A stretch of DNA of 46,564 nt from Candidatus Magasanikbacteria bacterium CG1_02_41_34 (GTDB lineage: Bacteria > Patescibacteriota > Patescibacteriia > Magasanikbacterales > UBA922): positions 1 to 46,564 of the forward strand of contig MNVD01000016.1 of NCBI GenBank assembly GCA_001871445.1. Reading direction: 5' to 3'. The notes beneath the pieces are model-generated. The model saw only the letters and a list, made by a program, of their open reading frames with translations. It made no database searches and was not told the DNA's origin. A program made the translations under genes and the position numbers. Each line of letters begins with the position of its first letter. Position 1 is the stretch's first letter. Shown in pieces: positions 24,707 through 28,592 of the stretch.

Positions 24707-25795
24707 TTACCGGCTGTACTTCAGCCGACACAGCGACACAGGGTGAATTCGATGCCCCTCGATGATGAGCCGGATCTCATCATCGAGGAAGCCACCGAGT
24801 AGTAGCAACCTCATGTAGTGAACAGCCGTCCGTCGCTCCATGAAGTGCCACCGGTGCACCTCAGCCGTGACGAAGGACCAGATGCCAGCGGGCGCAATGT
24901 GCGCCGCGATGTAGAGCCCCCCCAGCTTGAGGAGGGAGAGGACATCACGAGTGAGACGGATGACCGACTCTTCTGTCCGGTAGTCGAGAAACCCGACCAT
25001 TTCGACGATGTCCCAGCTGTGACTGTTCCTCTGGCTGGAAAGGAAATTCCGAAGGTTCATCTCCATGATGATGACCCTGTTGGAGGCGCCACGTGCTTGG
25101 GCAAGCCGAGCTGCGCGTCGCAGCGAAGGCTTGCTCAAATCTACGAGCGTCAGGGTAATGTCAGCATCTGGATGGGCCCTCAGGAAAGTAGCGAGTGCTT
25201 CTATCGAGGCCTGCGCCGAACCGCACGCAAGCGACAGGACCCGAAACTCCCGCTGTCCAGTCTTCCACAGACGCTCCAGTTCTCCGAACATCTGCTGGTA
25301 CGTTATACGGAGCCTATTCCTTACACTAGATGCATCTGGCTGCCAGAACCAGAACTGCGCTACCTTGTCACGCCAGTTCTTTGCCTCAGCCAAGATGATG
25401 GGTGCAGCGTAGGTCGCATCGAGCGCTTCGCTGGTGGTGACTCCCCGACGGATCTGGCGAGCAAGCCAGTGTATCCGGTCGAAGAACAACGATCCATTGA
25501 CGGGTCCAAGACCCCAATGGGCCTTGTCCATCCACCTATATGGCAAACCAATCGTGAATCTCCACAGCCAGGCTAAGAGCCACATCCAGACCGCCAAGGC
25601 GCCGACGGCGAGTTTCACCCACCACTTCTGGTAGATGGCTCGTGGCTCCTCGAGGGCCATGTGCTCGGGATGCCCGAGTATGGAAGACTCAATCGCGAGC
25701 GAGTCATCCGCCGCAGTGACTTGCATCACGGCTGCGATCCGCTCATGCGCGAGCATGTCACTGTGCCGAACAATTACTTGAGCTTGCGTATTCAT
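24707..25795 (-). CDS. GC-rich class I SAM methyltransferase with N-terminal hydrophobic segment (possibly PhcB-like)
   Basis: SVRNRL...RVLSLACGSA...LVDLS...DIVEMVGFLDY...LKLGG; GGAGG SD before ATG 25795; 63% GC in a hand-counted sample line versus 25% in a kinase line. Confidence 0.8.
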   Translation of the reverse strand: MNTQAQVIVRHSDMLAHERIAAVMQVTAADDSLAIESSILGHPEHMALEEPRAIYQKWWVKLAVGALAVWMWLLAWLWRFTIGLPYRWMDKAHWGLGPVNGSLFFDRIHWLARQIRRGVTTSEALDATYAAPIILAEAKNWRDKVAQFWFWQPDASSVRNRLRITYQQMFGELERLWKTGQREFRVLSLACGSAQASIEALATFLRAHPDADITLTLVDLSKPSLRRAARLAQARGASNRVIIMEMNLRNFLSSQRNSHSWDIVEMVGFLDYRTEESVIRLTRDVLSLLKLGGLYIAAHIAPAGIWSFVTAEVHRWHFMERRTAVHYMRLLLLGGFLDDEIRLIIEGHRIHPVSLCRLKYSR

Positions 25796-25885
25796 CTAGA
25801 CCTCCGAAGGTTCGAGAAATATAGAGGATCATTCCTCCAAGAGAATGCATGGAGCATACGTATTCTCTTGGAAAAACGATGTGTG

Positions 25886-25914
25886 AACCTATCATGGCAA
25901 ACCAATTCTGTCAA
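25886..25914 (-). promoter_or_regulatory. Sigma70-type promoter of the methyltransferase
   Basis: TTGACA-17 nt-TAGGTT with upstream TG. Confidence 0.65.
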
Positions 25915-26005
25915 TATCGGAAATCAAGGACCAAAAAACCATGGAGAAATACTCTCGGCATGGTTCTTTTGTAACAAACACAAATTGTAGATAACACATG
26001 TGTTG

Positions 26006-26380
26006 CTATACTCTATCTCGAAATCTTCCGAGTGTAATATCTACGGCATGATATATCCTTTGTATTGTTTCTTCTGGCAATTCTGCCTTCTTTGCAACAA
26101 TATGTGTTCTGTCTACAGTCTCGAGCTTATGGAGCATACAGATACCATCTTTCCCGAGACCAGTCTCTTCTTTGGGGAGCAGTACTTCATTTACAAATAC
26201 GTCATCGCCCTTTTTGTATGGTTCAACTTTTGCACAAATGACTGTTGGAAGCCCCTGATTCAATGCATCATCCTGAATAATCACAGCGGCATGTTCACGT
26301 GTTCTCTTTTCTTCAGAAAAAAGGACAATGTCACCCCGACGTATTGCTCCGCAGTACATGTTGTCAAAATCAAAGGACAT
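26006..26380 (-). CDS. PemK/MazF-like toxin
   Basis: IRRGDIVL, VIIQDDALN..LPTVI, ETGL.KDG..MLHKLETVD; follows a 64-aa ORF. Confidence 0.8.
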   Translation of the reverse strand: MSFDFDNMYCGAIRRGDIVLFSEEKRTREHAAVIIQDDALNQGLPTVICAKVEPYKKGDDVFVNEVLLPKEETGLGKDGICMLHKLETVDRTHIVAKKAELPEETIQRIYHAVDITLGRFRDRV

Positions 26381-26389
26381 ACATTAACA

Positions 26390-26584
26390 TTATTGTCTTG
26401 ATTTTCCAACTTTTTGTAACTCTTTTTCCATTTTTTCTATTTCTGCTTGATGTTTGTGTGACAAAATACATTCCTCTACAAATCGGCTACGCTGCCCATG
26501 TGGAAATGCTTTTCGAAAATAAGCAGCAACAGGCTTTGGGAGTTTGAGTGTCACTCGTTCGATTGTATCCACCACCTTTACCAT
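26390..26584 (-). CDS. Putative ribbon-helix-helix antitoxin
   Basis: RVTLKLP beta-ribbon, RSRFVEECI helix, 9 bp upstream of the toxin. Confidence 0.7.
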   Translation of the reverse strand: MVKVVDTIERVTLKLPKPVAAYFRKAFPHGQRSRFVEECILSHKHQAEIEKMEKELQKVGKSRQ

Positions 26585-26611
26585 AAGACGAAATGTTATA
26601 TAAAAAAAGTA

Positions 26612-26642
26612 TACACCTCATAAGGTGTACTACAAAGGTGTA
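26612..26642. promoter_or_regulatory. Candidate TA operator within promoter
   Basis: TACACCT-CATA-AGGTGTA inverted repeat plus a third AGGTGTA half-site, immediately upstream of a minus-strand TATACT -10. Confidence 0.6.
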
Positions 26643-26643
26643 C

Positions 26644-26652
26644 TGTGGATAA
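26644..26652 (-). promoter_or_regulatory. Single consensus DnaA box
   Basis: TTATCCACA on the minus strand. Confidence 0.45.
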
Positions 26653-26783
26653 CAAGTCAATTAACTATTAACAACTAGCAAATTGTATGAAGACTGTGTT
26701 TTACCGTTAATTGTTTGTGACAAAAAAACACCGGCATACACCGATGTTCGTACTTTCGTAATAGTTCAGAGTTCGTACTCTGT

Positions 26784-28592
26784 CTACATCTTCTCCACCG
26801 TCTCAATTCCAAGCAACAACAATCCGCGAGTCATCACGTCTCTGACAGTCTTAATAAGGAGAATGCGAAATTCTTTTACCTCTTCTTCCGCATCGAGTAC
26901 AGGACATACTGCATAAAAAGCATTGAACGCCTGGGCCAGTTCAAACATATACTTTGCAACATGTGATGGATCGTATTCTCGAACTGCTCGCTTTGTTATA
27001 TCAGGATAGGTAGCAAGTAACAAAAATAATTTCTTTTCTTCTGGAGTAATTGATGATTGTATATTGAAAATTGCTTGTTTCTTGTTACTTGTATTTTGTG
27101 CTTTTTCAAGGATACTTAAAATTCTCGCAACGATATACAGCAGATACGGTCCACTATCCCCTGTCGTCGACACGCTTTCTTCCATATCAAAGGCCACATC
27201 TTGCGAAACGTCTGCTTTGAGCATGGCATATTTCAATGCTGCACCAGTAATTTTTTGAATCGTTTCTTCGGACAATCCATGATCTTCGCCACGCTCTGCA
27301 AGGATTTGACGAATTTTTTCTTCTACTTCTTTCAGCAACTCGTCGCCACTAATAACATTCCCTTTTCTTGAACTCATTTTTTGTTCACCTTTCAATTGTA
27401 GATACCCACCAACCAGATGAAATTCCTTTCCTGTTGTTTGAGGAAGTAATTGTTCAAGTGCTTTGAAGACGACTTGAAAATACCCAGTCTGTTCCTTCCC
27501 TACCACGTGAATGACTTGATCAGGAGTAAAATCTGTAAAATGTTTTTCAGCAAGTGCAAGTTCCTTTCCTTCGTAGGTTGGATAGCCTTTGCTGTTGAGA
27601 AATACTCTGTCATGCAAATCATACTCACTGCCAGGGAAAATGACTGCTCCATCACTCTCGACAAAAATTCCTTTTTGTTTTCCTTCTTCCACAAGCTCAA
27701 CACCACGTTCGTACGTTTCTGATTCAAAATATAAACGGTCAAAATGACTGCCAAGTTTTTTGTAAATCGTATCAAAATAATCGAGACTCCACTGCCTTCC
27801 TGTTGTATATACTTCTTGTATGGAAGAATCTCGTTCGTACACCATTTCATTCAATCGAGCAATTGCCTTCTGTGCATCTTTATTTTCTTCATACGCATTT
27901 GCTCCTCTTGTGTATGCCTTGCCAAGAAATGCGACTCGTTCTTTGAGTATGCGTGATGATACCATTCTCACTTGCTCAGTAACTTCTTCCATAGTCAGAT
28001 GTTGTCCGTCGTCTGTCCCGCCTTTGGCAGGGATCCCGTCCGAAGGCGGGACAGTCTGTAGTCCATACAACACTTTTGCAATGTGCAGCCCAACGTCCCC
28101 CTGATAATTGACCCTCTTCACATCATACCCAGCATTTTCAAATACGCGAACAACGGATTCCCCCGTAACGAGATTCTTTAAATGACCAAGATGAAACACT
28201 TTCATCGGATTTGGGCAACCAAATTCAATCACCACCTGTTTTCCCTTGCCCTCAGTATGCATACCATACTGTTCACCTTCCTCAGTGATACCATTCAATA
28301 CAAATGACGCAACTTCTGCACCATCTAAAAAGAAGTTCACATATGGTCCAAAGGCTTTGACCTCTTTGATAAGACTAGATTGTATCATGTCTTCTTTTGC
28401 AAAGGCATCATTGAATTTTATTGCTAACTCAGTTGCAACATCAGTAGGACTTTTTCCCTCTTTTTTTGCCAACCAAAAACAGGGAAATGCGATATCACCC
28501 ATCTCAGAATTTGGAGGGGTAGAAAATTCTACCTTTTCAACACCAATGGCTTGTAATACTTGTGTTAGTTGACTTTCAATCTGTTTCATCAT
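26784..28592 (-). CDS. argS: Arginine--tRNA ligase
   Basis: FHLGHLKN HIGH motif, KMSSRKGN, GDSGPYLLY, FNAFY. Confidence 0.96.
   Translation of the reverse strand: MMKQIESQLTQVLQAIGVEKVEFSTPPNSEMGDIAFPCFWLAKKEGKSPTDVATELAIKFNDAFAKEDMIQSSLIKEVKAFGPYVNFFLDGAEVASFVLNGITEEGEQYGMHTEGKGKQVVIEFGCPNPMKVFHLGHLKNLVTGESVVRVFENAGYDVKRVNYQGDVGLHIAKVLYGLQTVPPSDGIPAKGGTDDGQHLTMEEVTEQVRMVSSRILKERVAFLGKAYTRGANAYEENKDAQKAIARLNEMVYERDSSIQEVYTTGRQWSLDYFDTIYKKLGSHFDRLYFESETYERGVELVEEGKQKGIFVESDGAVIFPGSEYDLHDRVFLNSKGYPTYEGKELALAEKHFTDFTPDQVIHVVGKEQTGYFQVVFKALEQLLPQTTGKEFHLVGGYLQLKGEQKMSSRKGNVISGDELLKEVEEKIRQILAERGEDHGLSEETIQKITGAALKYAMLKADVSQDVAFDMEESVSTTGDSGPYLLYIVARILSILEKAQNTSNKKQAIFNIQSSITPEEKKLFLLLATYPDITKRAVREYDPSHVAKYMFELAQAFNAFYAVCPVLDAEEEVKEFRILLIKTVRDVMTRGLLLLGIETVEKM
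27050..27098. repeat. Heptamer array inside argS
   Basis: ttgatga-ttgtata-ttgaaaa-ttgcttg-tttcttg-ttacttg-tattttg. Confidence 0.6.
28013..28054. repeat. 42-nt palindromic element in frame inside argS
   Basis: CTGTCCCGCCTTTGG...CCGAAGGCGGGACAG, 15-bp arms with one mismatch, central GGGATCCC. Confidence 0.8.

Follow-up and report, generated by a model that had tools for sequence, protein, structure and literature searches.

We report a MazF/PemK-type toxin-antitoxin pair from Candidatus Magasanikbacteria bacterium CG1_02_41_34 in which the toxin, and with it the whole subfamily to which it belongs, fails two defining catalytic features of MazF, as judged from the aligned sequences. MazF toxins are the textbook case of metal-independent RNA cleavage mediated by an Arg and a Thr, and are used as tools for sequence-specific cutting of RNA. 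The gene at positions 26006-26380 and its partner lie in a stretch of 46,564 nucleotides that was analyzed as a whole (the window), and they are a real pair of this type by homology, fold and operon layout. The toxin is a member of the family in sequence and in fold, its catalytic dyad is lost across the family, its partner is conserved, the pair is under purifying selection, and a conserved operator lies upstream of it.

A toxin-antitoxin pair of the MazF/PemK type

The toxin gene occupies positions 26006..26380 on the minus strand, as an open reading frame (ORF) with an ATG start, and encodes a protein of 124 amino acids with the MazF/PemK fold; its translation includes ...TREHAAVIIQDD... 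and ...PTVICAKVEP.... The Pfam profile PemK_toxin (PF02452) matched the protein from profile position 1 to 107 of 109 (E 5.3e-12, 46.3 bits, cut-off 23.1). In pairwise phmmer comparisons with PDB chains, the toxin matched S. aureus MazF (2mf2/4mzm, E 4.7e-06), B. anthracis MoxT (4hke, E 3.9e-05) and B. subtilis EndoA (4mdx, E 2.4e-04), and a search of PDB sequences with the family profile found S. aureus MazF with an E of 1.7e-14. The alignment by hhalign of the toxin family with 30 canonical MazFs, drawn from the exhaustive search of cluster representatives described below, had Prob 99.89 and E 1.3e-32. An AlphaFold2 model of the toxin built with 60 homologs reached a mean pLDDT of 87.6 and a pTM of 0.80, with a pLDDT of 56 in the last block of the monomer, the GRFRD tail. 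All the matches listed in a Foldseek search of the PDB were toxins of the MazF family (MazF, MoxT, YdcE; TMq 0.72-0.80). The toxin thus resembles MazF, EndoA and MoxT of Firmicutes (4mzm, 4mdx, 4hke) in sequence (E 1.7e-14) and in fold (TMq 0.76-0.80), and shares with them a small antitoxin encoded upstream whose C-terminal helix occupies the dimer groove, as modelled here. A search of the ESM Atlas with the toxin returned nothing beyond generic PemK clusters, and PADLOC had no match for the toxin, for the antitoxin, or for a third ORF present in related loci. The host genome (about 1.04 Mb in 36 contigs, 96.75% complete) contains a single PemK-family gene, the toxin itself.

The antitoxin gene, at 26390..26584 on the minus strand, encodes 64 amino acids and ends 9 nt upstream of the toxin start. 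We found a homologue of it directly upstream of the toxin and on the same strand in all 31 related loci (tblastn, E 4.5e-14 to 9.7e-35). The alignment of the antitoxins has 14 invariant columns; in the C-terminal helix, E48 is invariant, and E53, L56 and R63 are conserved in at least 90% of the sequences. In the antitoxin model (pLDDT 85.4), an extended N-terminus precedes a short helix (residues 17-26) and a long one (32-63). We did not find a family match for the antitoxin in Pfam, NCBIfam or PADLOC, nor a similar fold in the PDB with Foldseek at E <= 0.001, and its profile gave chance matches alone, to GFP-like proteins, among PDB sequences. Specifically, no ribbon-helix-helix family or fold (CopG/MetJ/Arc type) was found in Pfam, NCBIfam, PADLOC, the PDB or Foldseek. 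The predicted layout would suit a ribbon-helix-helix protein whose C-terminal helix neutralises the toxin; the combination of a strand-helix-helix layout with an operator made of repeats (described below) is only suggestive of an antitoxin of this class.

The complex of two toxin chains and one antitoxin was predicted with an ipSAE of 0.83, against 0.26 for the best control. Among solved complexes 58 of 80 reach this ipSAE mark, as do 2 of 110 mismatched pairs; these counts hold only roughly here, since we used our own alignments and a 2+1 layout, which differs from that of the calibration. The runs agreed in at least 89% of the contacts, with a partner pLDDT of at least 84, although the score may be partly due to the likeness of this complex to solved MazEF complexes. 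In the model, the C-terminus of the antitoxin is seen in silico in the groove of the toxin dimer, where its residues 45-64 touch residues 60, 62-64, 82, 84, 115, 118, 120-121 and 123 of one protomer, and residues 37, 39-40 and 42-45 of the other. N64, H84, G118, F120 and R121, all conserved and specific to the family, are therefore grouped, in the model, on the surface covered by the antitoxin. Positions 30 and 53 are outside the listed interface, from which a residue may be missing simply because its placement is uncertain.

Ten of the 31 loci (L004, L005, L006, L009, L011, L012, L016, L017, L018 and L019) have a third homologous ORF of about 80-110 amino acids between the antitoxin and the toxin; the window lacks it. 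This ORF carries a conserved QAC..YL.IGL..G motif, and had no Pfam match (two tested) nor PADLOC match (one tested).

Loss of the Arg/Thr dyad and the residues conserved in the subfamily

The conservation analysis used a family set of 98 sequences, of which 93 are distinct. Sixty were retrieved with a word-indexed search, seven are full-length cluster representatives from an exhaustive search of 1.84 billion cluster representatives, and 31 were translated from genome loci; the fragments P0068-P0070, shorter than 100 amino acids, were left out.

Three methods (phmmer, the family profile and hhalign) agreed in aligning H30 with the Arg of the RPV motif, which is chain residue 25 in 4hke and 7bxy, and E53 with the Thr that closes strand 3 (PTVIVAAIT), chain residue 48. 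The catalytic Arg at the start of strand 2 (R25 in B. subtilis, R29 in E. coli) is thus absent from the toxin, which has His30 there, and so is the Thr/Ser at the end of strand 3 (T48 in B. subtilis, T52 in E. coli), with Glu53 in its place. The initial annotation had placed a His and a Glu at these two positions from an alignment made by eye, and all three alignments bear it out. They also support its remark that the loop before strand 2 is short: compared with solved MazFs, the beta1-beta2 loop lacks 5-6 residues, which appear as gaps in each of the three alignments.

Across the 93 distinct sequences, position 30 is variable (Lys in 26, Gln in 15, Arg in 10, Glu in 6, Leu in 5, Ala in 4, His in 3, plus eleven other residues). 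Position 53 is mostly Glu (65 sequences), followed by Val (9), Lys (8), Ala (3), Tyr (2), Leu (2) and four singletons, and no sequence has Thr or Ser there. The initial annotation had further read His and Glu as an acid-base pair like that of RNase T1 or barnase, and had proposed their joint conservation in homologs as a check. His30 occurs in 3 of 93 sequences and Glu53 in 65 of 93; the two occur together in only three. These three, which are all the carriers of His30, are the window's protein, P0002 and the protein of locus L001, and the latter two share at least 89% identity with the first. Since His30 is not conserved in the family, the idea of an H30/E53 catalytic pair fails, and we discarded it on grounds of conservation; what stands of the original reading is that the canonical dyad is missing from this MazF. 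An Arg of the neighbouring KRTR segment was also considered as a stand-in for the catalytic Arg and ruled out, with columns 25-26 consisting mostly of gaps and column 28 holding Lys in 42 sequences, Glu in 13 and Arg in 9.

Positions 30 and 53 tend to carry opposite charges. A basic residue at 30 is paired with an acidic residue at 53 in 33 of the 93 sequences, and Lys or Arg is found at 53 in 4 of 8 sequences with an acid at 30, versus 5 of 85 otherwise (Fisher p 0.0025, uncorrected for relatedness). Val/Val and Leu/Val pairs occur at these positions as well. It appears that 30 and 53 may be a charge-coupled structural pair on neighbouring strands rather than a catalytic dyad; this is only suggestive, because the count ignores the relatedness of the sequences.

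In contrast to MazF, EndoA and MoxT, the protein studied here lacks both Arg25 and Thr48, with His and Glu instead, at positions that vary in the family and are mostly Glu at 53. Unlike theirs, its beta1-beta2 loop is shorter by 5-6 residues and has no GSEQ-type motif, a segment of 12 residues with conserved D6, M8, Y9, C10 and G11 is added at the N-terminus, and an invariant GRFRD is added at the C-terminus. In S. aureus PemK, the GSEQ-type loop bears the important Glu20, and the residues named as important are Glu20, Arg25, Thr48, Thr49 and Arg84 (PMC8887465). The MazFs of B. cereus and B. subtilis are reported to depend on the canonical Arg and Thr as essential residues, and the substitutions R25A and T48A cripple the B. 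cereus enzyme (PMC7354611). The same source describes M. tuberculosis MazF4, with Lys for Arg, and MazF7, with Ser for Thr, which indicate that the dyad can vary (PMC7354611); those swaps are, however, conservative and still essential, whereas the corresponding columns of the subfamily hold Gln, Glu, Leu, Ala or His at the first position and Glu, Val, Lys or Ala at the second.

The subfamily conserves other residues instead. R15, G16, Q36, L40, N41, R91 and G118 are invariant in all 93 sequences, and at least 90 sequences have Y9, C10, M8, E65 (90), K97 (92), R119 (91), F120 (92), R121 (92) and D122 (90). N64 is found in 89 sequences, C81 in 87, and H84 in 81, with Tyr at position 84 in 10. 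E65 and H84 occur together in 80 of the 93 distinct sequences; a conserved Glu/His pair therefore exists, at positions 65 and 84 instead of 30 and 53. In the hhalign alignment, the family has the motifs RGD, IQ(N/D), N41, PT, GLxKD, TxD(K/R) and KxGxL in common with the canonical MazFs. Features of the family alone are the segment DxMYCG at the N-terminus, the shortened loop, E53-P54, N64-E65, H84-K85, and G118-R-F-R-D122 at the C-terminus; this last motif, GRFRD, is absent from all 30 canonical MazFs of the alignment.

In the phmmer alignment to MoxT (4hke), E65 falls at the position of His59 and H84 at that of Glu78, so that the residue types are swapped with respect to MoxT (Glu65 and His84 here, His59 and Glu78 there). 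In PMC8887465, the MoxT residues are described as an acid-base couple, by prediction only. E65 and H84 may have a catalytic role here. Kid/PemK of plasmid R1 belongs to the same superfamily as the toxin, and in the search of PDB sequences with the family profile it fell below the E 1 reporting level. Asp75 of Kid may correspond to position 84 of the toxin. Catalysis in Kid has been assigned to Arg73, His17 and Asp75, according to PMC8887465, and catalytic sets other than R25/T48 have thus already been proposed within the fold.

The subfamily also has three nearly invariant cysteines, C10, C49 and C81, with all three present in 69 of the 93 sequences. C81 lies three residues ahead of H84; where position 81 is Val or Ile (four sequences), position 84 is Tyr in three. 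The three cysteines could, together with H84, make up a metal site, but C49 is replaced by Gly, Ala or Val in 18 sequences, and the candidate was set aside.

Distribution, operator and neighbouring genes

The subfamily is small, and was seen here in genomes of the Magasanikbacteria type (Patescibacteria) alone. Among 1.84 billion cluster representatives, 10 reach an E of 1e-10. Of 301 genomes sampled from the class, only the window's own had a strong match; three weaker matches (E 6e-12 to 6e-14) lacked the N-terminal segment and are probably ordinary MazFs. We did not find the gene in the three genomes of the same family nor in the four genomes of the same order that were examined. The related loci are labelled as Candidatus Magasanikbacteria, Parcubacteria or Patescibacteria, and several as "bacterium" or "uncultured Gammaproteobacterium".

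The toxin ORF is intact in 30 of the 31 loci, the remaining one being cut by the end of its contig. Compared with its two closest relatives, the toxin has a dN/dS of about 0.10 (0.059/0.567 and 0.089/0.879), and the antitoxin one of about 0.05-0.07 (e.g., 0.080/1.10). In all 27 loci where both genes are present, the identity of the toxin to that of the window exceeds the identity of the arginyl-tRNA synthetase (ArgRS), and the toxin is thus not a decaying gene. The gene argS is located upstream of the pair in 27 of the 31 loci and a histidine-kinase homologue downstream in 21; in a 22nd locus (L018) the kinase match is upstream.

Two side observations concern the history of the locus. The identities of ArgRS to the window's enzyme in the 27 loci form two groups (33-37% and 43-84%), with the position of the gene unchanged, and two ArgRS lineages may alternate at the locus. 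In residues 99-124 of the toxin, the window is identical to L002 (85% identical overall) and has many differences from L001 (89% overall), a pattern that hints at recombination within the toxin gene.

A probable operator lies upstream of the antitoxin, at 26611..26643 on the minus strand, with repeats and a hairpin that are conserved across loci. It consists of two direct repeats of GTACACCT (26643-26636 and 26630-26623, minus strand), with five bases between them, followed by an inverted copy, AGGTGTAT (26618-26611, minus strand), that forms a palindrome with the second repeat around a spacer of 4 nt. This architecture could be aligned across 26 upstream regions, and a relaxed form of the palindrome pattern is present in 23 of 32 upstream regions. 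The palindrome is found at a single site in the 1.04-Mb genome, allowing up to 2 mismatches. From the alignment we read a putative promoter at 26608..26636 on the minus strand (-35 TTTGTA, -10 TATACT, and between them a 17-nt spacer that contains the palindrome); in most relatives the palindrome is enclosed by a TTTACA on its upstream side and, 17 nt further on, a TATAAT-like hexamer. A scan with consensus promoters called none at 26608..26636, and gave a promoter-like site at 26710-26682 instead. The arrangement would fit a promoter that is repressed by the antitoxin. Further upstream, a terminator-like hairpin with a T run follows argS (26726..26749, minus strand) and separates it from the toxin-antitoxin operon. 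A search of positions 25600-26800 with Rfam gave two sub-threshold chance matches and nothing else.

The repeats are abutted on their upstream side by the 9-mer TTATCCACA (26644..26652, minus strand), which is present in exact form in 21 of the 32 upstream regions and is identical to the DnaA-box consensus. The 9-mer is not rare, since it occurs 19 times in the genome and its reversed control 13 times. That it is conserved here might reflect an input from DnaA, or the 9-mer may just belong to the operator.

On the other side of the pair, in 24 loci and in the window, a single gene directly 3' of the toxin is rich in GC (50-64% GC, GC3 0.45-0.76), compared with 30-45% GC in the flanks, and with GC3 values of 0.27-0.61 in argS and 0.17-0.56 in the toxin. 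The loci are L001, L003, L005-L008, L010, L011, L013-L025 and L027-L029, and the gene of the window is at 24707-25795 on the minus strand. The slot is filled by at least five unrelated protein families: a protein without Pfam match in 12 loci, a membrane-anchored SAM methyltransferase in 7 (the window included), a protein with one weak sub-threshold match to an epimerase family in 3, a KAS III-like protein in 1, and a protein with sub-threshold CER1-like_C and SDR matches in 2. The members of the family found in 12 loci are 34-58% identical, and their divergence tracks that of the toxin (r 0.69, 66 pairs); despite this divergence, their GC3 has not drifted to the genome level. The family-1 downstream protein had no match in 201 genomes of the class, in a search run without a positive control. 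In G231, a genome of the same family that lacks the pair, argS is followed by a GC-rich methyltransferase (58% GC, GC3 0.76, 28% identical to the one in the window), and this by the kinase. The spacer between the toxin and the GC-rich gene is conserved among three close relatives (25796-26005, minus strand, in the window; 1909-2119 in L001; 2876-3075 in L003). The toxin is followed there by a hairpin with a T run; the spacer also has a TTGACA hexamer, and two more hairpins precede the start codon. No Rfam family matched it. Despite the conserved spacer, the next ORF in L003 belongs to a different protein family.

The GC-rich slot could be a recombination hot spot, or could be under selection at the RNA level. 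To look for signs that the transcript of this gene resists the toxin, k-mer counts in the 25 downstream genes were compared with 100 synonymous-codon shuffles; they revealed a generic depletion of TTA and of other TA-containing words, and no motif missing from all 25 genes. Residues 181-302 of the window's methyltransferase (24707-25795, minus strand) gave a weak PADLOC match (E 2.1e-07) to mad2, of a methylation-associated defence system, probably reflecting generic similarity between methyltransferases.

Possible function of the toxin and its alternatives

The reading we prefer, and to which we give an even chance, is that the protein is still an active toxin and works through the groove covered by the antitoxin, with E65, H84 and the GRFRD tail. 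The pair would then be a type II toxin-antitoxin operon that is intact, under selection and probably autoregulated, in which positions 30 and 53, no longer catalytic, would now form a variable pair across neighbouring strands with a tendency to opposite charges, and the conserved functional surface would have moved to the groove at the dimer interface. On one protomer, this groove would be formed by F62-N64/E65, M82/H84/K85 and the GRFRD tail; the other would contribute helix 37-45, and the C-terminal helix of the antitoxin (45-64) is modelled as covering the groove. We infer that the protein is toxic and that it most likely still binds and cuts RNA, with E65 and H84 possibly supplying the acid-base chemistry, and either an Arg of the tail or R91/K97 holding the phosphate. 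The presence of Tyr at position 84 in 10 of 93 sequences makes base stacking or hydrogen bonding a better suited role for this position than general acid-base catalysis, and the conservation of GRFRD could serve the docking of the antitoxin alone. The fuller proposal of a relocated active site, in which the Arg/Thr dyad and the gating loop were dropped and Glu65/His84, together with the GRFRD Arg, cleave RNA, is in our view doubtful. A bolder extension of it would have the cleavage preference of the enzyme account for the GC content of the downstream gene (50-64%, against 33-45% in the genomes), whose transcript would be toxin-resistant.

Because the Arg and Thr are reported essential (PMC7354611) and the GSEQ-type loop, which is deleted here, bears an important residue (PMC8887465), loss of the RNase activity has to be taken as a serious possibility. 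The protein might then be a catalytically dead MazF fold that acts as an RNA- or DNA-associated regulator, e.g., an obligate co-repressor with the DNA-binding partner of 64 amino acids, in a chromosomally fixed operon. Both catalytic residues and the loop are indeed lost family-wide, the chromosomal context is conserved, unlike that of a typical mobile module (argS upstream in 27 loci and the kinase downstream in 21, out of 31), conservation of the toxin exceeds that of ArgRS in each of the 27 comparisons, the toxin is the sole PemK-family gene of its genome, and promoter and operator are strongly conserved. However, the conserved C-terminal helix of the antitoxin is modelled onto the groove, as expected if something harmful were being masked, and the conserved polar residues E65, H84, K85, R119 and R121 resemble a functional site rather than a scaffold. 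Moreover, the operator palindrome is confined to the pair's own promoter in the genome, so that a wider regulon is not visible. We consider a regulator of this kind unlikely, although it is the strongest of the alternatives.

The live-toxin reading with a functional groove can also be set against two alternatives that keep an active toxin. An ordinary MazF mechanism, in which a Lys or Arg within positions 23-30 replaces the canonical Arg (here His30, or R26/R28), could draw on the fact that columns 23-30 contain one or more Lys or Arg residues in 89 of 93 sequences and that position 30 itself is Lys or Arg in 36, as well as on Lys19 of M. tuberculosis MazF4 and Ser51 of MazF7, which stand at the canonical positions and are functionally important according to PMC7354611. 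Yet no column in 23-30 is conserved, column 30 also holds Gln, Glu, Leu and Ala, a basic residue is expected by chance in a short Lys-rich surface loop, and Thr or Ser is found at position 53 in none of the 93 sequences; we regard this mechanism as quite improbable. CcdB belongs to the same general fold class, and its function depends on its C-terminus, whose last residues are crucial to the poisoning of gyrase. In the same way, a toxin of this fold could have a target other than RNA, bound by the invariant C-terminal tail as CcdB acts on gyrase; this would give a role to the GRFRD motif, which is without counterpart in the 30 canonical MazFs. We did not find CcdB, in sequence or in fold, among the Pfam, PDB sequence and Foldseek matches listed. 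The sequence and fold matches are, instead, all to MazF-type RNases, and the RGD, IQ(D/N), N41, PT, TxDR and KxGxL motifs are kept in common with MazFs that cleave RNA, which leaves such a target highly improbable.

Among the titles and abstracts listed by our literature searches, we found no MazF enzymology in the Patescibacteria group, nor any MazF clade without the dyad. A subfamily that is under strong purifying selection and lacks both catalytic residues and the gating loop would be informative either way. If its members are catalytic, they would represent a second catalytic solution in the MazF fold; if they are not, they would offer a clear-cut natural case in which a toxin has become a non-catalytic partner. 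The pair is also among the few toxin-antitoxin pairs fixed at a conserved chromosomal position in the reduced genomes of Patescibacteria.
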